Source: an uncultured Methanotrichaceae archaeon (lineage in GTDB: Archaea; Halobacteriota; Methanosarcinia; Methanotrichales; Methanotrichaceae). Taken from it: a DNA stretch of 64,000 nt. The stretch spans positions 2,279 through 66,278 of the forward strand of contig CAZWDT010000002.1 in NCBI GenBank assembly GCA_964632755.1. The letters run 5' to 3'. Shown piece after piece: positions 50,335 to 59,858 of the stretch (positions are counted from its first letter, which is position 1; the number at the start of each line of letters is the position of its first letter). Below the pieces are notes generated by a model that did no database searches, was not told where the DNA came from, and saw only the letters and a program-made list of their open reading frames with translations. A program made the translations under genes and the position numbers.

Positions 50335-50730
50335 TCACATGCGACTGCGCACTGCAGGCAGAGCGGCTCGCTCTCGCTCCATCTCCCGCCGGCATCGGGG
50401 GCATATCTCCACCCAGGAGACCCCTTCTGAGTCCCTCTGCATCTCTTCGGGGACGACCTCGACGATTCGCTTCAGCATCGGCCTGGTTGCGAATGGCGTA
50501 TGGCAGACTTGGCAGGGGATCAGCTCGAAGGATATCTGAAAATCCTCCCCCTCCGGGCTGATGGATAGGGCCTTTCCAGGACAGAACTCGACGCACAGGT
50601 CACAGAACTCCTCGCATCGAGAGAAATGTATCACCCTTTGCTCTCCGTCCTCGAGGGTAATCTTTCCCGAGGGACAGACGTTGGAGCAAGCCGAACAACC
50701 CAGACACCTGCTGGAATCCATGGATATCAT
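50335..50730 (-). CDS. 4Fe-4S ferredoxin-domain protein with an extra Cys-rich C-terminal half
   Basis: 131 aa. CLGCSACSNVCP and CDLCVEFCP form the ferredoxin domain, and CQVCH...CPRC forms the Cys-rich tail. It overlaps the upstream gene by 4 nt. Confidence 0.8.
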   Translation of the reverse strand: MISMDSSRCLGCSACSNVCPSGKITLEDGEQRVIHFSRCEEFCDLCVEFCPGKALSISPEGEDFQISFELIPCQVCHTPFATRPMLKRIVEVVPEEMQRDSEGVSWVEICPRCRREMERERAALPAVRSRM

Positions 50731-51170
50731 CTCGTCTTCCTCCTCTCAATGATCGAGGCTTGGGCCGCCTTGTACCTTGCCCTGCGGTGAACGACATCAT
50801 AGTCAACGGATAGGGCTTGTGCAGGACAGGTGGCAACACAGGTTGGAAGCTCGGATGGATAGCAGAGGTCGCACTTATGGGCAAGCTTATCGGACCAGAT
50901 CACGCCAAAGGGGCAGGCAAGTGTGCAGATGCCACAGCCCGTGCATTTGGCAGCATCGAAGGATACTCGATCCCCGTCGGTCGTAAGGGCCCCCGAGTAG
51001 CAGGCCTTGGCACATGTGGCATCCTTGCAATGGTGGCAGAGAAGCGGCACGGCTGCGCGCCCATCGGCGAAAAGAACTGCGATATGAGGCTCTCCGTTGT
51101 GTTCCCTCTTGCAAGCGACCTCGCAGGCCTTGCACCCTATGCACCTCAATACATCGACGTATACCGGCAT
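50727..51170 (-). CDS. poly-[4Fe-4S] ferredoxin-like electron-transfer subunit (HycB/FdhB-small-like)
   Basis: 147 aa. Cluster motifs are CIGCKACEVAC, CHHCKDATCAKAC, CTGCGICTLACP and CDLC....CVATCP. Its ATG abuts the fdhA-like stop. Confidence 0.85.
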   Translation of the reverse strand: MPVYVDVLRCIGCKACEVACKREHNGEPHIAVLFADGRAAVPLLCHHCKDATCAKACYSGALTTDGDRVSFDAAKCTGCGICTLACPFGVIWSDKLAHKCDLCYPSELPTCVATCPAQALSVDYDVVHRRARYKAAQASIIERRKTR

Positions 51171-53207
51171 CTAATCCCTCCGGGCGAGATTGCAGGCGGC
51201 CACCTTGAACTCAGGGATCCCGGCAACCTCGTCCCTTGCACCGCTAGTGAGGATGTTCGCTCCCGGAAAGTGAAACGGCATGAAAATAACGCTAGAGGGA
51301 ACCCTCTCTGTGATCCGGGCCAAGGCTTCCGTCGTTCCCCTGGCGGTGGATACGACGACCATATCGCCTTTTATGATGCCAAGCCTTAGGGCATCCTTGG
51401 GGTTGATCTCGGCGAAGGCCTCCGGCTCTCGCTCCGCGAGGGAGGGGCTTCTCCTGGTCATCGATCCGGCGTTATGATGGACGGCGATCCTTCCGGTCGT
51501 AAGCGTGAAAGGGAACTCGCCGGAAGGCCCTTCGGCCGGAGGCCGGAAGGATACGGGCAGGATCCGGCCCCTTCCGTCCTTCGTCTTGAAGGCCTCGGTA
51601 TAAAGGATGGGAGTTCCTGGGTGATCTTGGCTCGGGCAGGGCCAGATTATGCTCGTAGCATTGAGCCGGGATCTAGTGACCCCCCCATAGGCGGGAACGG
51701 TTCTGTTGATCTCGGAGAGGACCTCCTCGGCCCCGGCGTAATCGAAGTTCAATCCCATGCGATTTGCCACCTGACAGACTATCCAGAGATCCGAACGGGC
51801 CTCGCCTGGAGGGCGAACCGCCCGATTGGTCCATTGGATCCGTCTCTCGGTGGAGGTGAAAGTCCCCTCCTTCTCCGCCCAGCAAGCAGCGGGGAGGACT
51901 AGATCGGCCAGCTGGGCAGTAGACGTCATGAAGATATCCTGGACGACCAGGAAATCGAGCGAGGAGAGCACCTCCTTGACATGGTGGCTGTTGGACTCCG
52001 AGTTCACCGGGTCCTCCCCCACGATATACATCGCTTTGATCCTTCCGTCTTTTGCTCCATCGATCATCTCGGGGGCGGTCAGGCCTCGGCCAAGGGGAAG
52101 GGATTGCGCATCCCAGGCCATGGAGAAGGCCCCCACGGTTGCCGGATCGTCGGCTGGGCGGTACCCTGGATAGAACTCGGCAAGCGCGCCCATATCGCAT
52201 GCCCCCTGAACGTTGTTCTGGCCACGGAGAGGAAGCACGCCAGTCCCTTCCCTCCCTATCTGGCCGCAGATTAGGGCCAGGTTGGCCAAAGCTTGGACGT
52301 TATCCGTCCCCGTTGTATGCTGAGTTATCCCCATGGAGTAGACGATCGATGAGGCCGGGGATAGGGCATAGGCCTCTGCTGCCTGGAAGATCAGTTGAGC
52401 TGGAATGCCGCAGATCTCCTCCGCCCACTCCGTGGTGCAGCCCTTCAGCGCCTCCACAAGATCCGGGCAGCCTCTTGTACGAGTGGCTATGAACTTCTCA
52501 TCCATCCAGCCCTCGTCGATGATCAGCCTGGCCATGGCGTTTAGAAGGGCAACGTCAGTCCCTGGCCGGATCTGGAGGAATATATCCGCGAGCCAGGCGG
52601 TCGGTGTGTAGCGGGGATCGGCTACGATCACGACCGCCCCCGCATCCTTTGCCCGATGGATCCATTGTGTGATCACGGGGTGGTTCTCGGCGAGGTTTGA
52701 GCCTATTATGAAGATACATCTGGAGTTGGCTAGATCAGGGATTGGATTGGTCATCCCAGCGGCGCCCAGGGAGCGATTCAGCCCCACAACGGACGGCGCA
52801 TGGCAGAGGCGTGCACAATTGTCGACGTTCTTCGATCCCAGGGAACGGGCCAGCTTTTGGATGAGGTAGTTCTCCTCATTCGTGCACTTCGACGATGCTA
52901 GGAACCCCAGGGATGGAGGTCCCCCCCCCTTCAAGGCCTTGGCTAACTGCCGGGCGACTACGTCGAGAGCCTCCTCCCAGCTGATGCGAGCCCATATATC
53001 GCCCACCTTCTTCATGGGGCAAGTGAGACGATCTTTATTGTTGATCACCTCAAGGGAGGCGTTGCCTTTGGGACAGAGGGCGCCTTGGCTCACCGGATGT
53101 TGGGGATTGTACTCGATTCCCATGGCGAGGCCCCTCTCAGTCGTGATCTGCAGTTCACATCCTACGGCACAGTAAGGACAGACGGTGGATACGGTCGATC
53201 TGGGCAT
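51171..53207 (-). CDS. fdhA: molybdo/tungstopterin oxidoreductase, formate dehydrogenase catalytic (alpha) subunit type, Cys variant
   Basis: 678 aa. It has the N-terminal Fe-S motif CPYCAVGCEL....CPKG. The active-site stretch NCARLCHAPSVVGLNRSLGAAGMTN aligns with the FDH (U/C)H.PSV.GL motif and has Cys, not an in-frame TGA. Confidence 0.8.
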   Translation of the reverse strand: MPRSTVSTVCPYCAVGCELQITTERGLAMGIEYNPQHPVSQGALCPKGNASLEVINNKDRLTCPMKKVGDIWARISWEEALDVVARQLAKALKGGGPPSLGFLASSKCTNEENYLIQKLARSLGSKNVDNCARLCHAPSVVGLNRSLGAAGMTNPIPDLANSRCIFIIGSNLAENHPVITQWIHRAKDAGAVVIVADPRYTPTAWLADIFLQIRPGTDVALLNAMARLIIDEGWMDEKFIATRTRGCPDLVEALKGCTTEWAEEICGIPAQLIFQAAEAYALSPASSIVYSMGITQHTTGTDNVQALANLALICGQIGREGTGVLPLRGQNNVQGACDMGALAEFYPGYRPADDPATVGAFSMAWDAQSLPLGRGLTAPEMIDGAKDGRIKAMYIVGEDPVNSESNSHHVKEVLSSLDFLVVQDIFMTSTAQLADLVLPAACWAEKEGTFTSTERRIQWTNRAVRPPGEARSDLWIVCQVANRMGLNFDYAGAEEVLSEINRTVPAYGGVTRSRLNATSIIWPCPSQDHPGTPILYTEAFKTKDGRGRILPVSFRPPAEGPSGEFPFTLTTGRIAVHHNAGSMTRRSPSLAEREPEAFAEINPKDALRLGIIKGDMVVVSTARGTTEALARITERVPSSVIFMPFHFPGANILTSGARDEVAGIPEFKVAACNLARRD

Positions 53208-53275
53208 ATTTATCCTGTTCCAATCAGTCCCTCATGATCTGCAATATCCTCGATCGAGTCGGCCGGACAATAGTC

Positions 53276-54094
53276 CTAGTAGGCATAGATCTTTCCATAA
53301 GGCCTCTTGGAGATCGGGGATATCTTGATCATATTCCCCTCTGAGATCTCCTCCTTGCACATCCCAATCTCCGGGAACCGGTCCAGGAACTCTCCCACGT
53401 ATCGGTCCAGTATGGCTCGATCCTCCTCGTCGAGGGGCGAGATCTCCACCTCCTGGCCCAACTGGCTGGGCATAAGATCGCCCCTGAGGTAGATGACGCC
53501 GCCGTGCATCCCAGTCCCTATGTAGTTCGCGAGGTGCGGCTTGCCTCCAAGGCCTAGCAGTATCACTATACCTCCTGCCATGTACTCGCCCAGGAAGTCT
53601 TGGGAAGTGCCTCCGATCACCAACACCGGCTTCTTGTCCATGTATTCCTTCATGTGGAGGGCCGTCCTGTATCCCACGTCTTCCTTGACGAAGATCTTGC
53701 CTCCCCGCATGGACATTCCGAGCACGTCCCCGGCCCTGCCTTGCACGGTTATCTCGCCATCGTCCATGGTGTTTCCCACGCCGTCTTGGACGTTGCCATG
53801 GACCATTATGCGATGGCCGCTTAGGAAGGCCCCCAGGTCATTGCCTGGAGTGCCCACGATCTCGATATCCAGCGGTATCATTAGGCCAAAGAGCCTGGTT
53901 CCGATGTACCTCTGGCCACATATATTCTTCAGCAGGAAGTGGCGCGTCCCATTCAGCATGCAGTTGCGGAGCAGGTTGTTGAGCTCCTTGCTGGGCATGC
54001 CGGTTGCATCTATCTCCACCTCGCCTACCCTCCAGCTCTTTACCGCATTGAGGGCCGGTCCGGCCGTCCCGCAATCTATCAACTGTGCTTCCAT
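53276..54094 (-). CDS. glutamate synthase GXGXG (domain 3) subunit, archaeal split type
   Basis: 272 aa. G..GNDLGAF..G..I.V.G...DGVGN.M..G.I.V.G.AGD..G..M.GG.I.V is the beta-helix repeat pattern. The gene lies next to the domain 1 and domain 2 genes. Confidence 0.75.
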   Translation of the reverse strand: MEAQLIDCGTAGPALNAVKSWRVGEVEIDATGMPSKELNNLLRNCMLNGTRHFLLKNICGQRYIGTRLFGLMIPLDIEIVGTPGNDLGAFLSGHRIMVHGNVQDGVGNTMDDGEITVQGRAGDVLGMSMRGGKIFVKEDVGYRTALHMKEYMDKKPVLVIGGTSQDFLGEYMAGGIVILLGLGGKPHLANYIGTGMHGGVIYLRGDLMPSQLGQEVEISPLDEEDRAILDRYVGEFLDRFPEIGMCKEEISEGNMIKISPISKRPYGKIYAY

Positions 54095-54113
54095 GATTAC
54101 AGACCTCCTGTTC

Positions 54114-55625
54114 TTATTCGCCTGCTCCTTTCACCCCGAGGACATCGAGCTCCCACTCGTAGAGCCCCACGCCTCGAAGGTGATCTCGGTTTCCTCGAAG
54201 GCTCTCAATGGCGTTGATGCCCATGCCGCCCAACATCTCCTTGATCTCATGAGACCAAGCTGTGAGCAGATTGACCAGACGCTGAGAGGCGATTCTGGTG
54301 TCTAACCTCCCTGCCAGGCGGGGATCTTGGGTGCATATTCCCCAGTTGCACTTGCCTGTGTAGCACTTCTGGCAGAGCGTGCATCCCATGGCTATCAGGG
54401 CTGCAGTTCCTATGTAGACGGCATCTGCCCCGAGGGCGATGGCCTTGATCACGTCGGAGCTGCATCGGATGCCACCGCCGGCTATGATCGTACAGCGACT
54501 CCTCACCCCTTCCTCCCTTAGCCTTCTGTCCACTGCGGAGAGGGCAAGTTCGATGGGGATGCCAACGTTGTCCCGGATCGCCTTGGGTGCGGCCCCTGTG
54601 CCTCCCCTCATCCCGTCAATGGCCACTATGTCCGCACCCGCTCGGACTATTCCCGAGGCAATGGCTGCGATGTTGTGCACCGCTGCCACCTTGACCGATA
54701 TGGGCAACTCGTAGTTCGTGGCTTCTTTGAGGGCGTAGATGAGCATGGAGAGGTCCTCTATGGAGTAGATGTCGTGATGGGGGGCTGGTGAGATGGCGTC
54801 CGTCCCCTCGGGGATCATCCTCGTTGCAGCAACCTTTGAAGAGACCTTCTCCGCTGGGAGATGGCCGCCTATCCCCGGCTTGGCTCCTTGTCCAACTTTT
54901 ATCTCGATCGCTCTCGCACAGTTCAGGTACTCTGCATCGATGCCGAAGCGGCCCGATGCCACCTGCACCGTAGCATAGCGTCCAAACTCCGCTCGCATGT
55001 CTCGAGGCAGGCCCCCCTCTCCCGTGTTGAAGAGGGTGCCGAACTCGCGGGCGGCCATCGCCAGGGAGTTGAAGGCCTGGTAGCTTATGGCCCCATAGGA
55101 CATGGCGGAGAAGAGAATGGGCGCTTCTATGGTGATGTTCGGGCCAAGCTCAGTGCTAATCTCGCCGCAATCGTCTATCTCGAGCAGGTCCGGCTTTCTG
55201 CCAAGGAACGTCCGGAGCTCCATAGGCTCTCGAAGTGGATCAATGGACGGGTTTGTGACCTGGGATGCGTTCAGGACGATGTTGTCCCAGTAGATGCGAA
55301 GTGGCTTGTCGCTGCCGCAACCTGATAGGAGGACGCCTCCGGTCTCCGCCTGCTTCTTGAGGTCGTCTATCTTCTCCCTAGTCCAGGCCTCGTTGGGCCG
55401 ATAGTAGGGGGGGGTGGGGCGGACCACAAGGGCATTTTTGGGGCAGAATATAGCGCACCTCTGGCAGCCGGAGCACAACTTCTCGTTGGTTACCATCCGA
55501 TCTGCAACCGGATCGTAGATGTGGGTTCCAAAGGCGCACTGCCGTTCGCAGCCGCGACATTGGTTGCAGGCCGACTCATCGCGGAATATCTGGAATTCAG
55601 GAAATAGGTAGGACCTCATTGGCAT
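54114..55625 (-). CDS. glutamate synthase FMN-binding (domain 2) subunit with an N-terminal 2x[4Fe-4S] ferredoxin domain
   Basis: 503 aa. CNQCRGCERQC and CSGCQRCAIFCP form the ferredoxin domain. The TIM-barrel motifs are IEIKVGQGAKPGIGGHLP, DIYSIEDL, DIVAIDGMRGGTGAAP and IIAGGGIR. Confidence 0.88.
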   Translation of the reverse strand: MPMRSYLFPEFQIFRDESACNQCRGCERQCAFGTHIYDPVADRMVTNEKLCSGCQRCAIFCPKNALVVRPTPPYYRPNEAWTREKIDDLKKQAETGGVLLSGCGSDKPLRIYWDNIVLNASQVTNPSIDPLREPMELRTFLGRKPDLLEIDDCGEISTELGPNITIEAPILFSAMSYGAISYQAFNSLAMAAREFGTLFNTGEGGLPRDMRAEFGRYATVQVASGRFGIDAEYLNCARAIEIKVGQGAKPGIGGHLPAEKVSSKVAATRMIPEGTDAISPAPHHDIYSIEDLSMLIYALKEATNYELPISVKVAAVHNIAAIASGIVRAGADIVAIDGMRGGTGAAPKAIRDNVGIPIELALSAVDRRLREEGVRSRCTIIAGGGIRCSSDVIKAIALGADAVYIGTAALIAMGCTLCQKCYTGKCNWGICTQDPRLAGRLDTRIASQRLVNLLTAWSHEIKEMLGGMGINAIESLRGNRDHLRGVGLYEWELDVLGVKGAGE

Positions 55626-56746
55626 CCCCTCTCCGAGAGCTCGCCGACAACCGGCTCTCCGCCATTGGGGGTCCAGACCCGGTCGAGGTCCGGCGATATC
55701 AATCGGATGGAGGCCTCCTCTGAGGAGAGATAGAGCATCTCCCCCTTTGTGGCCGCGGTCAGTGGCCGCAGCCTTATCCTGTCGGTGAGGCCTATCATCT
55801 CCCTCTGATTGGCTATGATTATCGTGAATGGACCGTTTAAGAGGAGCGGGGCATATACCATTCTAAGCGCAGTCAAGAGCTTTCGAGCCTTTTCGTCCAT
55901 CCGGTCGATGGATTTCCATACCGGCGGGGAGAGCACCTTGGATACTAGCTCTATTGGCAGCCTCTGCCTTCTCATCAGCAGGTCAACGGCGTAGGTGATA
56001 ACCTCCGTATCGGTGAATAGCGTGCATTTGTAGCCGTACATCTCCAGATAGCGGCGGTTAGTTCCATACGAGGAGATCTCCCCGTTATGGACCACGGTCC
56101 AGTCGAGGAGGCCGAAGGGATGGGCTCCACCCCACCAGGCCTGGCTATTTGTAGGAAAACGACCATGCGCGGTCCAGATGTGGCCCCGATAGAGCCGGTC
56201 CAACATGAAATACTCCGATATCTCCTCGGGAAAGCCCACGCCCTTGAAGATGCCCATGTTCTTGCCGGAGGAGAAGACGCAAGCGTTCTCGATCTGGGTG
56301 TTCACCCACATGGACTTGGCAACGACGTAATCGTCGTCGGAAAGCCTGGCCTCGTCCCCCTTCTTGTTGGGGGCAACGAAATATCTCCATAACAATGGAG
56401 GGTCCATCACCCTTACTTCATCGTCATGGGGGATCTCCTCATCGTAGACCAGGTCGAAGTTGGCGCATAGGAAGGCCTCGAACTCGTCCTTGGCCTCTCT
56501 CTTGACCTGCCTGTTACCTCCGGTGAACATCATATGCAGGGCGTAATACTCCTGGTATTGAGGGTAAATCCCATACGCAGCGAATCCTCCGCCCAGTCCG
56601 TTGCCGCGAACGTGCATATTGGCTATGGCTCTGGTAACACCCTCGCCGGTGAACCTTTCTCCATCCCGGTTCATCGCACCGAAGATGGAGCAGGAGCTTA
56701 TCTCCTTCTCGTGGATCTCTCTTCTCACTCTTCTCTCCGTCATCAT
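55616..56746 (-). CDS. glutamate synthase glutamine amidotransferase (class II, domain 1) subunit
   Basis: ...SSCSIFGAMNRDGE...HVRGNGLGGGFAAYG...GHIWTAHGRFPTNS...VVHNGEISSYG are Ntn-amidotransferase motifs. The catalytic Cys is preceded by a short propeptide. The start is uncertain (ATGATG at 56746 or ATG at 56803). The track start at 56863 lies inside the promoter block. Confidence 0.8.
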   Translation of the reverse strand: MMTERRVRREIHEKEISSCSIFGAMNRDGERFTGEGVTRAIANMHVRGNGLGGGFAAYGIYPQYQEYYALHMMFTGGNRQVKREAKDEFEAFLCANFDLVYDEEIPHDDEVRVMDPPLLWRYFVAPNKKGDEARLSDDDYVVAKSMWVNTQIENACVFSSGKNMGIFKGVGFPEEISEYFMLDRLYRGHIWTAHGRFPTNSQAWWGGAHPFGLLDWTVVHNGEISSYGTNRRYLEMYGYKCTLFTDTEVITYAVDLLMRRQRLPIELVSKVLSPPVWKSIDRMDEKARKLLTALRMVYAPLLLNGPFTIIIANQREMIGLTDRIRLRPLTAATKGEMLYLSSEEASIRLISPDLDRVWTPNGGEPVVGELSERGCQ

Positions 56747-56837
56747 CGCCTCAAAGCATGAATCTGCTAAGCAAGCAAGCGTGCTGCCTGTTAGGAACCC
56801 CATTGACGATTGCCATCCCCATACGTCTCGACGTCGC

Positions 56838-56873
56838 TTTATATGTGTTTGAGAGATTTTCACAAAACTTATG
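56838..56873 (-). promoter_or_regulatory. conserved promoter/operator block upstream of gltB1 (shared with glnA)
   Basis: The minus strand reads cataagttttgtgaaaatctctcaaacacatataaa. It is identical at 28 of 36 ungapped positions to the block at 58366..58401. It contains the near-palindrome TCATAAsTTTTGTGA and a TATA-like end. Confidence 0.55.
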
Positions 56874-56899
56874 ATCTCTTGGGACTTGGCTAGGGGAGT

Positions 56900-56919
56900 G
56901 CCGGGGCTCTAACCCCGGC
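56900..56919 (-). terminator. GC-rich hairpin between glnA and the gltB1 promoter
   Basis: gccgggg-ctctaa-ccccggc has a 7-bp stem and lies about 70 nt after the glnA stop. No strong T-tract follows it. Confidence 0.3.
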
Positions 56920-56989
56920 AATCAGATATCCTTCTATCAGCTCCAAACCTCTTCTATCCGGCAAGGGCCAAGGGAGTAGGAGTTATCCC

Positions 56990-58324
56990 CTAAAGCAGGG
57001 GAAGATACCTCTCCAGCTCCCATTGGGTCACGTTCATTCGGTATGCGTCCCATTCCTTTCTCTTGTTGGCGAGGAAGGCATGAAATACATGCTCTCCCAG
57101 CGCTTCCCTCACGAGCTTGCTCTTCTCCGTGAGATCGATTGCCTCGTTCAGGCTTCCTGGAAGGGATGAGATCCCGGCGCTTGTCCTCTCGGCATCGGTC
57201 ATGTGGTAGACATCTTTCTCCTGGGGATCGGGTATGTCGTACCGGTTGTTGATCCCGGCAAGGCCAGCTGCCAGCATTACCGAGAAGGCCAGGTACGGGT
57301 TGGCGGCTGGATCGGCGCTTCTGTACTCCACCCTGGTCGCGGTCTCTTTGCCTGGTTTATACATGGGAACCCTCACCAATGTGGACCGGTTCCTTCGAGC
57401 CCAGCAGATGTAGACAGGGGCCTCGTAGCCGGGAACAAGCCTCTTGTAGGAGTTGATCCACTGGTTGGTAACCGCGGTTATCTCAGGGGCGTGCTTTAAG
57501 AGGCCGCCGATGTAGTTCCTGGCCTCCTCGGACAAGTGGTACTTGTCTCCCGGATCGAAGAAGGCGTTCCTCTTGCCCTTGAAGAGCGATTGATGAACGT
57601 GCATCCCCGATCCATTCTGACCGAAGATCGGCTTTGGCATGAACGAAGCATGATAGCCATAGCGACTCGCCACTTCCTTCACAACGATCTTGTAGGTCAT
57701 GCAGGTGTCGGCCATGTTGAGGGCGTCCTTATACCTGAGATCGATCTCGTGCTGGGATGGGGCTACCTCGTGATGGCTGTACTCGACATCTATTCCCATG
57801 GAGTCCAGGGTGAGGATGGTGTCCCGACGCAGATCGCTTGCAGCATCCATGGTGGTAAGGTCAAAGTAGCCGCCATGGTCCAGTATCTCCGTGGTGTGCT
57901 CGTTCTTGAAGTAGAAGAACTCGAGCTCAGGACCTACGTTGAACGTATATCCCTTATCCTTGAGCCTCTCCAGGTTCCTCTTGAGAACATATCTGGGATC
58001 GGCCTCATAGGGGGTGCCATCGGGATTGAGGATATCGCAGAACATCCTCGCGACAGCGTTCTCCTTCTGCCGCCAGGGCAGTATCTGGAAGGTCGTAGGA
58101 TCGGGGACGGCGACCATGTCGCTCTCGTTGATCCGAGCGAAGCCTTCGATGGAGGATCCGTCGAAGCCCATTCCCTCTTCGAAAGCCCCTTCGAGCTCTG
58201 AGGTGTTTATCGCGAAGCTCTTTGGCGTTCCTAGTATGTCCGTGAACCATATCCTCACGAACCTCACGTTATTCTTCTCCACTGCGGCGAAGAGTTCGTC
58301 CTTGGTCCTTATGTTTTCGGCCAT
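56990..58324 (-). CDS. glnA: glutamine synthetase, type I
   Basis: 444 aa. Diagnostic motifs are FDGSSIEGF, GPELEFF, HHEVAPSQHEIDLRY, KPIFGQNGSGMHVHQSL and NPYLAF. Confidence 0.92.
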   Translation of the reverse strand: MAENIRTKDELFAAVEKNNVRFVRIWFTDILGTPKSFAINTSELEGAFEEGMGFDGSSIEGFARINESDMVAVPDPTTFQILPWRQKENAVARMFCDILNPDGTPYEADPRYVLKRNLERLKDKGYTFNVGPELEFFYFKNEHTTEILDHGGYFDLTTMDAASDLRRDTILTLDSMGIDVEYSHHEVAPSQHEIDLRYKDALNMADTCMTYKIVVKEVASRYGYHASFMPKPIFGQNGSGMHVHQSLFKGKRNAFFDPGDKYHLSEEARNYIGGLLKHAPEITAVTNQWINSYKRLVPGYEAPVYICWARRNRSTLVRVPMYKPGKETATRVEYRSADPAANPYLAFSVMLAAGLAGINNRYDIPDPQEKDVYHMTDAERTSAGISSLPGSLNEAIDLTEKSKLVREALGEHVFHAFLANKRKEWDAYRMNVTQWELERYLPLL

Positions 58325-58365
58325 CTTATTGCCTCTTCTATAGTCTGCTCCCTTGCGGTAGAAAA

Positions 58366-58401
58366 TATATATCTATTTGAGATCGATTCACAAAAGTTAT
58401 G
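58366..58401 (-). promoter_or_regulatory. conserved promoter/operator block upstream of glnA (shared with gltB1)
   Basis: The minus strand reads cataacttttgtgaatcgatctcaaatagatatata, about 40 nt upstream of the glnA ATG. Confidence 0.55.
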
Positions 58402-58669
58402 AAGAATAACAACCTCCAATTATTCAGCTATTCTGGAAAATACTTAACAATTGTCTGGCTGCAATTCCGATAGGATCTTTCAGCGGCCCCTCCCACCCCA
58501 AGGATACGGCCTGGCCTTTTATAGGGTGACGGAGGCGCTCTCCTATGAACTCTTATGAACGATTATGAAGCCTCTTCCAGGGACTAATGCGCATCGGACG
58601 ATGGCCCCCTGGACAAGAAAACCACAATCTTTATCATCGATAAGGGAAGCTAGGGGAATAGGAGGTATC

Positions 58670-58789
58670 ATGGATCTATTGTCCGTCATTGAGATCGTCC
58701 AGGGCATCCTGGTCTTGGGGATCATGCTTCTGATCTTGGGGGCAGGGTTCAAGGTATGGAAGTGGAACTATACGGTCCCGCCCAAGTGA
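58670..58789 (+). CDS. 39-aa single-TM micro-protein
   Basis: ggaggt lies 4 nt before the ATG at 58670. The product is MDLLSVIEIVQGILVLGIMLLILGAGFKVWKWNYTVPPK*. Confidence 0.35.
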   Translation: MDLLSVIEIVQGILVLGIMLLILGAGFKVWKWNYTVPPK

Positions 58790-58928
58790 GCACCTATAGG
58801 CTCTCCATTTTTATATCGATGGGCTCGGCATAGGTCTGATCTCGGAACGCAAAGCTCGTTCCGACAAGCTGATTGGCGTCTCCCCGCCATCTTAGGGCTT
58901 ATCGAAGGCTTTTCTCGCGGGCCGAGGG

Positions 58929-59858
58929 TTAATAAAGCGGGTAGCCGATGATCAGCCTTGCTGCTGAGATGGTCCCTGTCCACACGCGAGCGGCGGAGGT
59001 GGTGAACTGATAACCCGGGCGCGAGGCGGTTATGGCGTAGGTGCCTGATGGCAGATCCATTCCATAGTAACCGAAGGCGTTGGTGGTCTGCGTGAAGCGG
59101 CCGCCCTCGCTGCCGCTCATTCTAACGGTCACATCGGGAATCCCTGCGCCGTTTGGGTCCACCACTCGACCGGTCAGGCCGTAGATGAGCGGATAAGAGC
59201 CGGGGTTCACCGATATGGATAGGTTGTTGCTGGCCAAGGCGCCGCATACGAAAGTGTAGAGATGAGATGTCATTATCTCGGCGTAGCCCCCTTTGATCCT
59301 ATACCACCTGGGGGCGAGATAGCCCTGGAAGAGGACGTTTGTGCCGGTGTCATATAGGTTGAAGCTTCCATAGCGTCCTATCCTTGCCCAGAGGGTGTAG
59401 CCTTCGCCAAGGTTCACGCTGCCGGAGGTTACAAGGCTGCTTCCCATCTGCAGGTAAAGCTGATTGGGCTGGCGTTGGGCGCCTTCTATCGTCAGCCCTT
59501 CCTCGATCGGATCGGCCTTCTCGACGATCATGCCCGACGCGGAGGAGGGACCATAAGGATCCCAGGAGGGAATGTCCGCACTGACGCCCTCTCCGCCAGG
59601 TCCAAATGGATCCCACTCAGGCCTTCCGGCGGCGAATGGATTTAGGTAGTCGGGCACTAGCTGGTCATCGGTCGCTTGGGCAGGCGTACCCATCCAATCG
59701 TATTTGCTATCCGATATGCCCTGCACGGGCGCGGCAAACGATATGGCCAATGCCAAAACGATAGACATCGCCAGAATAACTCTCAAGAGCAAACCCCAAA
59801 TGTCATCTCCTGTAATCGACTTAAATCTTTCGATCGGGTCTCTATCGTCGTCGACCAT
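58929..59858 (-). CDS. N-terminally anchored protein with a C-terminal carboxypeptidase-regulatory-like (CarboxypepD_reg) beta-sandwich domain
   Basis: The C-terminal GLTGRVVDPNGAGIPDVTVRMSG....TTNAFGYYGMDLPSGTYAITASRPGY is diagnostic. The likely start is the ATG at 59858 (MVDDDRDP... followed by TM LLLRVILAMSIVLALAISFA). The track start is 59966. Confidence 0.7.
   Translation of the reverse strand: MVDDDRDPIERFKSITGDDIWGLLLRVILAMSIVLALAISFAAPVQGISDSKYDWMGTPAQATDDQLVPDYLNPFAAGRPEWDPFGPGGEGVSADIPSWDPYGPSSASGMIVEKADPIEEGLTIEGAQRQPNQLYLQMGSSLVTSGSVNLGEGYTLWARIGRYGSFNLYDTGTNVLFQGYLAPRWYRIKGGYAEIMTSHLYTFVCGALASNNLSISVNPGSYPLIYGLTGRVVDPNGAGIPDVTVRMSGSEGGRFTQTTNAFGYYGMDLPSGTYAITASRPGYQFTTSAARVWTGTISAARLIIGYPLY

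Follow-up and report, generated by a model that had tools for sequence, protein, structure and literature searches.

A candidate operator and core-promoter module for nitrogen-assimilation genes in Methanotrichaceae and its putative ribbon-helix-helix regulator

How might nitrogen assimilation be controlled in archaea whose NrpR has been lost? To our knowledge, archaeal nitrogen control is known almost wholly from NrpR, with NrpA, in Methanococcus and Methanosarcina, and we know of nothing on the nitrogen control of Methanothrix, the ANME-1 methane oxidisers or Bathyarchaeia. Methanothrix are the main acetate-consuming methanogens of wetlands and digesters. NrpR is a repressor released by 2-oxoglutarate (PMC9765008), and NrpA of Methanosarcina mazei, an archaeal nitrogen regulator besides NrpR, is a nif-specific activator (PMC9765008, PMC11456600). 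Here we analyse a window of 64,000 nucleotides (the whole stretch at its full length) from an uncultured Methanotrichaceae archaeon (assembly GCA_964632755.1, contig CAZWDT010000002.1, positions 2,279 to 66,278), in which similar promoter blocks precede glnA, encoding glutamine synthetase (GS), and the gltB1 operon of a split archaeal glutamate synthase (GOGAT). With a probability that we put at roughly 0.7, the block is the operator and core-promoter module of a nitrogen-assimilation regulon, and the operator is that of an uncharacterised ribbon-helix-helix (RHH) regulator. The narrower claim, that a transcription factor of a nitrogen regulon has its operator here, is very probably correct.

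The promoter module and the genes that carry it

A first-pass annotation of the window had described two 36-nt blocks on the minus strand, at 58401..58366 upstream of glnA and 56873..56838 upstream of gltB1, identical at 28 of 36 positions, each ending in a TATA-like tract and beginning with an imperfect palindrome. The sequences, the identity and the TATA-like tracts are as described, and a dyad is present in both blocks, but the half-sites given for it, TCATAA and TCACAA, are only this genome's variant of a dyad that reads TTCATAA-N3-TTATGAA across the family. The module consists, in order, of this 17-bp palindrome, a spacer of four nucleotides (N4), the box TCTCAAATA, and TATA; the right half-site is here TTGTGAA, a variant of the family's TTATGAA (Table 1). 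The TATA-like octamers of both modules lie 40-90 nt 5' of the start codons. Counted from the start of the box, related heptads recur at -31 and -21 (forward), at -11 (reverse) and at -1 (the box itself), with a 10-bp period that places them on one face of the DNA, and most relatives have an extra TCATAA heptad one helical turn upstream of the palindrome. The true dyad, the phased heptads, the distribution across phyla and a specific candidate regulator are what the present analysis adds to that annotation.

The 15-mer CATAASTTTTGTGAA is found at two places only within the window, the glnA and gltB1 blocks, as against a mean of 0.09 in shuffled sequences, one of 100 of which reached two; nowhere else in the whole genome (2.46 Mb, 56% G+C) does it occur, even when one mismatch is allowed. 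When the glnA 36-mer is scanned against both strands of the genome, the best non-self match is the gltB1 block (28/36), and the promoters of a small Cys-rich protein (26/36), of a gltB-like/gdh operon (24/36) and of amtB (23/36) are also matched, against a background in which one unrelated site also reaches 24/36.

Orthologous promoters in relatives keep the module. After a search of 40 relatives with GlnA and orientation of the loci, it was found 5' of glnA in all 19 Methanotrichaceae genomes and 5' of gltB1 in 12 relatives. An ungapped alignment of 27 promoter sequences (A1) has the consensus TCAnAAnTnT-TCATAA-nTT-TTATGAA-nnnn-TCTCAAATA-n-CTATAAAT. Over 16 genera, the 50 columns of the module have a mean identity of 77%, with 14 invariant columns and unalignable flanks, and in 27 of the 27 promoters 14-15 bp separate the dyad from the TATA downstream of it. 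Some promoters have a tandem duplication of the box, TCTCAAACCTTCTCAAATA or TTCTCAAAAGTTCTCAAATA (gltB1 of M. harundinacea, L053, and loci L079, L185 and L126), and one relative (L007) has no separate gltB1 promoter.

That the block is an RNA element, such as a leader hairpin or a riboswitch, or that the two blocks are alike through recent duplication or chance, has a probability close to nil. Transcription from an upstream promoter would allow the dyad to form a hairpin of 7 bp, but the dyad precedes TATA, its pairing is disrupted in variants such as TTAAGAA, and the Rfam covariance models gave no match at E<=1 over positions 56600-59000. Duplication and chance are both excluded by conservation over 16 genera and several phyla with flanks that cannot be aligned.

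Which genes are marked by the module? In this genome, sites with the full architecture stand only before glnA, gltB1, a Cys-rich protein of 109 aa and the gltB-like/gdh operon, and variant sites stand before amtB (contig C38) and a second amt (C55); a second glnA (C34) is without a module. The few genome-wide sites are thus those of nitrogen genes and of the small Cys-rich protein, the enrichment that would be expected of a nitrogen regulon. A sequence-only model built from A1 (R1), and hence trained on Methanotrichaceae, ranks the same few promoters at the top in six other genomes of the family: glnA and gltB1 in all of them, the Cys-rich protein in the sister species and M. harundinacea, amtB in M. 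thermoacetophila, and the gltB-like/gdh operon in the sister species and in G051, a genome of about 3.0 Mb from a Methanothrix sp. In the module of the gdh operon on C14, an operon that has a module in G051 as well, both heptads point in the same direction, TTATGAA-N3-TTATGAA. One R1 match, at C1:124496, was treated as a false positive, having neither a nitrogen gene nor a plausible open reading frame (ORF) downstream. Judged by the genes behind it, the module is the predicted mark of a nitrogen-assimilation regulon. The Cys-rich protein (108-110 aa) is a conserved member of that regulon in the window's own genus, in M. harundinacea and in another Methanothrix metagenome-assembled genome (MAG; loci L055, L057 and L139), and so small a protein might serve to modulate nitrogen enzymes.

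The box is specific to the regulon. The genome has three occurrences of TCTCAAA with TATA after it, every one in the regulon, and such a box is absent from 166 aligned ordinary TATA-bearing upstream regions, which have only a weak A at -5; the genome-wide counts and the aligned promoters together rule out a generic TFB-recognition element (BRE). It is very unlikely that the box is instead a variant BRE for an alternative TFB or TBP, that is, a nitrogen-specific basal factor, with the palindrome secondary. The box does stand at the expected place of a BRE and is regulon-specific, but a BRE must abut TATA, whereas the distance between box and TATA varies from 1 nt in Methanotrichaceae to 2-4 nt in ANME-1, Bathyarchaeia and Hydrothermarchaeota, and the register of the box is fixed instead to the palindrome, at N4. 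A fixed N4 with a variable distance to TATA is more readily explained by an element that a factor binds, and by steric occlusion, than by a site for TFB or an activating contact that must be precise.

Nor does the module resemble the operator of NrpR. The first-pass annotation had missed no GGAA-N6-TTCC: neither promoter has one, the three matches elsewhere in the window are at chance level, and the GGTAA-N4-TTACC-like variant is likewise at neither the glnA nor the gltB1 promoter. It had also suggested that the block may be bound by a nitrogen regulator other than NrpR, and this is supported by genera that keep the module without an intact nrpR. Here nrpR (PF01995) is a relic of three frame-broken pieces with a stop codon, its N-terminal DNA-binding part missing; the sister species has the same relic, genus g4 (three genomes) has no nrpR, and the other 14 genera have two copies. 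Because genera g1 and g4, without intact nrpR, retain a perfect module, the module is independent of NrpR, and NrpR is ruled out as its reader. It is extremely unlikely, then, that the module is a diverged NrpR operator. Most Methanotrichaceae genera do hold two nrpR-like genes, and NrpR governs glnA, amtB and nif in other methanogens (PMC9765008). Against this stand the relic of the window's genus and the absence of the gene from g4, both with a perfect module, the missing GGAA-N6-TTCC, and a sequence and a position upstream of TATA that differ both from that operator and from the sites of Methanosarcinaceae. The Methanosarcinaceae loci lack the module and have GGAA-N6-TTCT-like and GGTAA-N4-TTACC-like dyads downstream of TATA, which are, as predicted from their sequence, NrpR-type sites.

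A ribbon-helix-helix protein as the candidate reader

The module extends well beyond the family. A scan of 185,579 species genomes (596 Gb) for TCATAANNNTTRTGANNNNNTCTYAAA gave at least 118 loci. Those listed include Methanotrichaceae, ANME-1/Methanophagales, unclassified Methanosarcinales MAGs, Methanocellales, Archaeoglobaceae, Hydrothermarchaeota, Bathyarchaeia and others, and the genes downstream are glnA of both types, amtB, gdh, gltB-like genes, and genes for a FrhB/FdhB-like protein and a homocitrate-synthase-like protein. About 25 bacterial matches among those listed, without TATA or nitrogen genes, were set aside; by our own estimate their number is about that expected by chance in 596 Gb.

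Two Bathyarchaeia loci have, near the module, a gene whose product of about 185 aa carries a CopG-like motif at its N-terminus, and a member of the same RHH family is encoded in the genome of the window, outside the window (Table 1). Judged by genomic context and co-occurrence, this RHH protein is probably the factor that reads the module. Among the 118 listed loci, tblastn finds RHH matches in 17, and in 11 of these the gene is directly beside the module, divergent in L147, L182, L135, L133, L090, L126, L089, L132, L104 and L086 and on the same strand in L116; the lineages are ANME-1, Methanocellales, Hydrothermarchaeota and other MAGs. Outside Methanotrichaceae, R1 has 91 matches in 301 Halobacteriota genomes, and 26 of these, distributed over 22 genomes, stand 33-425 nt 5' of the start codon of an RHH gene that is divergent in every case, where the chance of such adjacency is about 3e-4 per site (for a single gene in a genome of 1.5-2 Mb). 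In two genera the RHH gene is just downstream of the glnA-gltB cluster.

The presence of the gene also follows that of the module. All 16 Methanotrichaceae genera have the RHH gene and none of the 16 f2/f3 genomes does; the three Methanotrichaceae genomes without a match are incomplete MAGs, and the other sampled genome of each of those genera has the gene. Among module-positive Halobacteriota genomes, 56 of 59 have an RHH gene (of the other three, two are incomplete MAGs whose family is RHH-positive and the third is a borderline match), and 169 of 172 RHH-negative genomes are without the module, an odds ratio of 43 over the 301 genomes if kinship is ignored. A profile of 30 members gave no full-length match in 61 Methanosarcinaceae genomes, Methanosarcina-sized ones included. 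Since Methanosarcina has NrpA, yet the family is without the RHH protein, the possibility that the RHH protein is NrpA itself is ruled out.

Might another factor, for example of the Lrp/AsnC type, read the module, with the RHH protein a mere neighbour in the regulon or a local autoregulator? An Lrp gene is near the module in loci L109 and L089, and in Methanotrichaceae no regulator gene adjoins the module. Yet these two loci compare, among the 118 listed, with 17 for RHH (11 directly beside), to which the 26 of 91 matches of the genome scan must be added, and it is RHH presence that tracks module presence over the 301 genomes; short phased heptads in both orientations would, moreover, suit RHH dimers better than an Lrp octamer. 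A reader other than the RHH protein is therefore improbable, and Lrp, adjoining the module in only two listed loci, was rejected. Two further candidates in this genome were rejected as well: a divergent 245-aa protein by the Cys-rich gene (C4:15806-16543), which has no Pfam match and is not conserved at the M. harundinacea locus, and a winged-helix-like ORF of 130 aa near the gdh operon (C14:15525-15917), which has no Pfam match and is unlinked to the module.

What kind of protein is the candidate? Pfam finds RHH_1 (PF01402) alone, at residues 6-41 (39.9 bits against a cut-off of 20.5), NCBIfam gives no significant model, and the public names of the family are only 'CopG family transcriptional regulator' or 'hypothetical'. 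The closest solved relative of the RHH domain by sequence is the CopG repressor (PDB 2cpg/1b01; E 1e-4), and PDB searches with the N-terminal 50 residues (E<=10) and with the full-length profile (E<=1) did not match NikR. In an alignment of 30 members (A2; 43-78% identity to its first row, P0001), R6 and T8 of the predicted DNA-reading strand are invariant, as are E67, H68, D72, H75, H103, C124 and N125 in the C-terminal part, an uncharacterised domain of about 140 aa. The AlphaFold2 monomer (mean pLDDT, the model's per-residue confidence, 83.7) has the RHH helices at residues 13-26 and 30-43, a helical region at 54-122 and a beta-beta-alpha-beta-beta unit at 127-180. Residues 1-12 are not called as strand, as expected for a sheet that forms only in the dimer, and the first ten have a mean pLDDT of 62. 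A fold search with the model found no ACT-like match. CopG binds phased subsites as several cooperating dimers, nucleating on a pseudo-symmetric element and covering about four helical turns over the promoter, and the heptads at -31, -21, -11 and -1 are, by their spacing, the right geometry for such putative cooperating RHH dimers. In the literature within our coverage, which did not take in subscription journals, we found nothing describing the motif or the RHH protein, and nothing linking RHH or CopG proteins to archaeal nitrogen control.

Several observations weigh against the RHH protein as reader, or against the generality of the module. In Methanotrichaceae the RHH gene adjoins no module and none was seen in front of it, and across the 19 Methanotrichaceae glnA loci no conserved regulator gene adjoins glnA; the link in this family would thus rest on co-occurrence and on transfer from other lineages. 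The co-occurrence counts are phylogenetically non-independent. Seventy-three RHH-positive genomes have no R1 match; trained on one family and strictly filtered, R1 under-detects elsewhere, and Methanocellales at least do carry the module, but some of the 73 may hold RHH paralogues with other functions. The pattern used in the large scan contained the box, so conservation of the box outside the family is partly ascertainment. Finally, Foldseek of the AlphaFold2 model against the PDB returned designed proteins and weak H-NOX/Bet3-like matches (TM 0.3-0.4), with no convincing natural match.

Other observations touch the RHH family and the module. In family f7, whose genomes are small (for example G262, G126, G171 and G311), each genome has 6-7 matches to an expanded RHH family, mostly without R1 matches, and these copies may be paralogues with other targets. 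In two MAGs, at G013:C80:3846-4954 and G003:C315:11847-12207, a partial RHH match and a partial glnA match share one short segment in head-to-head orientation; either the assembly is chimeric there or the two genes really are neighbours in those genera. The RHH gene of the window's genome adjoins two genes that look by eye like acetyl-CoA synthetases (662 and 674 aa; C38:9621-13993), and in L071 and L082 (Ca. Methanospirareceae and a MAG labelled Halobacteria) the gene after the module encodes a protein of 633 aa that is likewise acetyl-CoA synthetase-like by eye alone; such neighbours hint at a carbon-nitrogen link. In five Bathyarchaeia loci (L077, L092, L093, L115 and L187) the module is followed by more than 300 nt without an ORF. 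What is conserved there instead, CTTTAAATCCCAAAATGCA...CAGAGCAAAACAAA, might belong to a long leader or to a non-coding RNA controlled by the same operator.

Mode of action and gene context

How would an RHH factor act on the module? Two RHH dimers would nucleate on the palindrome, and further dimers would spread cooperatively over the phased heptads to the box; with the box against or over BRE/TATA, full occupancy would keep TFB and TBP off the promoter. When fixed nitrogen is plentiful, glnA, the GOGAT operon, amtB and the other members would be shut down, and a metabolite sensed by the C-terminal domain, for which 2-oxoglutarate and glutamine are guesses, would alter the affinity for DNA. 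That the factor represses at these promoters is modestly favoured, because the N4 register is fixed, the distance between box and TATA is variable and the core promoter is consensus-like. Of the BRE-proximal activator site, co-regulating GS and GOGAT, that the first-pass annotation proposed as an alternative, the place next to the BRE stands, but 'activator' is unsupported, the geometry slightly favouring repression.

It is possible, though doubtful, that the same operator and the same RHH protein activate instead. Bound at the palindrome (about -53 if the transcription start is about 25 nt past TATA), the protein would recruit TFB/TBP to the special box or BRE under nitrogen limitation, and repression would occur only where a site overlaps a promoter, such as its own divergent promoter or a putative upstream promoter. 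The strongest site is indeed upstream of BRE/TATA, a position typical of archaeal activators (Ptr2, TFB-RF1, and SurR or TrmBL1 at activated promoters), and it counts against repression that archaeal sites upstream of the BRE usually activate. In the divergent arrangements of ANME-1 loci, the TATA-like tract on the RHH side abuts the palindrome directly and the target side has the box between, an asymmetry that could mean auto-repression together with target activation. A recruiting contact should, however, be sensitive to spacing, whereas it is the distance of the box to TATA that varies, over 1-4 nt, and that to the palindrome that is fixed; the core promoters, with a good TATA and the A at -5 of ordinary promoters, do not look crippled; and characterised RHH factors are mostly repressors. 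Whichever model holds for the targets, the abutting TATA-like tract suggests that the RHH gene is negatively autoregulated.

Further heptads lie upstream of glnA, in a distal array followed by a TATA-like sequence (Table 1), and in seven other genera a pair TTATGAG-N3-TTCATA stands exactly at -101/-91, with a TTTAAA box about 38 nt upstream of it, an arrangement that resembles two promoters and so favours the activating model. The distal heptads might serve as an auxiliary operator or as a looping partner of the main site, which is 80 bp away; alternatively, they could form a second promoter under the same factor.

The features of the window are collected in Table 1. The ORF listed for gltB1 is over-extended, its GTG start at 56863 overlapping the promoter, and the real start is most likely the ATG at 56746 (MMTERRVRREIHEKEISSCSIFGAM), because the N-terminus was aligned to relatives. 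The genes from gltB1 to the 4Fe-4S proteins are, we infer from their tight spacing, co-transcribed. Between the glnA stop and the gltB1 module is a hairpin rich in G+C, GCCGGGG-TTAGA-GCCCCGGC. It might end or stabilise transcripts and in this way set the glnA and gltB1 units apart.

Table 1. Coordinates of the promoter modules, the genes behind them and related features. Bare positions are those of the window; G000 is the genome from which it comes and C its contigs.
Feature	Position	Strand	Remarks
glnA promoter module	58365..58403	-	R1 top match in this genome, E 8.4e-11
glnA module, left heptad TTCATAA	58403-58397	-	N3 after
glnA module, right heptad TTGTGAA	58393-58387	-	N4 after
glnA module, box TCTCAAATA	58382-58374	-	N1 after
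glnA module, TATA ATATATAT	58372-58365	-	
gltB1-operon promoter module	56837..56875	-	R1 E 4.1e-10
gltB1 module, left heptad ATCATAA	56875-56869	-	N3 after
gltB1 module, right heptad TTGTGAA	56865-56859	-	N4 after
gltB1 module, box TCTCAAACA	56854-56846	-	N1 after
gltB1 module, TATA ATATAAAG	56844-56837	-	
Distal array TTCATAA-TCG-TTCATAA-GAG-TTCATAG	58543..58569	-	three direct heptads, 10-bp period; 161-187 nt upstream of glnA box
TATA-like CTATAAAAGG after distal array	58524-58515	-	
G+C-rich hairpin	56900-56919	-	
glnA, glutamine synthetase, 444 aa	56990..58324	-	Pfam Gln-synt_C 1.1e-136, Gln-synt_N 4.7e-33
gltB1, class-II amidotransferase subunit of split archaeal GOGAT	55616..56746	-	Pfam GATase_2
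Remainder of gltB1-module operon	50335..55625	-	extent
gltB2	54114-55625	-	Pfam Glu_synthase 4.9e-144 and GXGXG families seen among operon genes
gltB3	53276-54094	-	gltB1 operon
Molybdopterin oxidoreductase resembling formate dehydrogenase	51171-53207	-	Pfam Molybdopterin
Two 4Fe-4S (ferredoxin-like) proteins	50727-51170, 50335-50730	-	Pfam Fer4
Cys-rich protein, 109 aa	G000:C4:15315-15647	-	weak PF14196, below cut-off
GltB2-like FMN (flavin mononucleotide) protein, 533 aa, and glutamate dehydrogenase operon	G000:C14:10214-13495	-	variant module
RHH protein, 182 aa	G000:C38:8652-9200		outside the window; 42-43% identical to the two Bathyarchaeia proteins
nrpR relic	G000:C13:31420-31881		

Comparison with known systems

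The analysis puts forward a specific operator, delimits its regulon and names a candidate protein. In its widest form the proposal would be that the RHH-plus-sensor protein and TTCATAA-N3-TTATGAA/TCTCAAATA constitute an unrecognised master nitrogen-control system across archaeal phyla, in Halobacteriota (Methanothrix, ANME-1, Methanocellales, Archaeoglobi), Hydrothermarchaeota and Bathyarchaeia, independent of NrpR and NrpA and the sole nitrogen regulator left where NrpR has been lost, with a C-terminal domain that senses its ligand by a new fold and uses the invariant E-H-D-H-H-C to gauge nitrogen status; we would give this form even odds. If true, it would define a new class of ligand-responsive RHH regulator and a promoter code that predicts nitrogen-responsive genes in uncultured archaea. 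It would also provide an orthogonal regulator/operator pair for Methanosarcina genetics, as Methanosarcinaceae are without both parts.

Among described systems, NrpR (with GGAA-N6-TTCC in M. maripaludis, and as NrpRI/NrpRII in M. mazei) is alike in placing one palindromic operator at several nitrogen promoters (glnA, amtB, nif-related) and in a logic of repression released by 2-oxoglutarate, which is the logic that the module here would follow. It differs in that the module reads TTCATAA-N3-TTATGAA, lies upstream of TATA, where the Methanosarcinaceae loci have their sites downstream of it or over the start site, and would be bound by another protein family, nrpR being a pseudogene here. NrpA is nif-specific, whereas the module is at glnA, gltB and amtB. 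The Lrp gene next to glnA in haloarchaea is reminiscent of the present case in being a regulator gene near nitrogen genes, but here the recurrent neighbour is the RHH gene, and Lrp is found in only 2 of the 118 listed loci.

The TnrA/GlnR boxes of Bacillus subtilis, TGTNA-N7-TNACA, are likewise 17-bp dyads, at the promoters of glnA, amtB and glutamate synthase, and the outcome there is set by position. Similar as the dyad and the kinds of genes are, TnrA and GlnR are bacterial factors of the MerR family acting at sigma-70 promoters, and there is no homology. NikR and MetJ couple an RHH domain to a ligand that sets the affinity for DNA, which is the design we infer for this protein, and the E. 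coli NikR half-site GTATGA presumably resembles TTATGA. Unlike the N3 here, however, the half-sites of NikR are N16 apart, and neither NikR among the profile matches nor an ACT-like fold was found.

CopG, one of the CopG/Arc/MetJ repressors, is the nearest solved relative of the RHH domain, and its cover of several dimers matches the phased heptads of the module. CopG of plasmid pMV158 is, however, a plasmid-borne protein of 45 aa without a sensor domain, whereas the protein here adds a conserved domain of about 140 aa and would control the chromosomal nitrogen metabolism of archaea.

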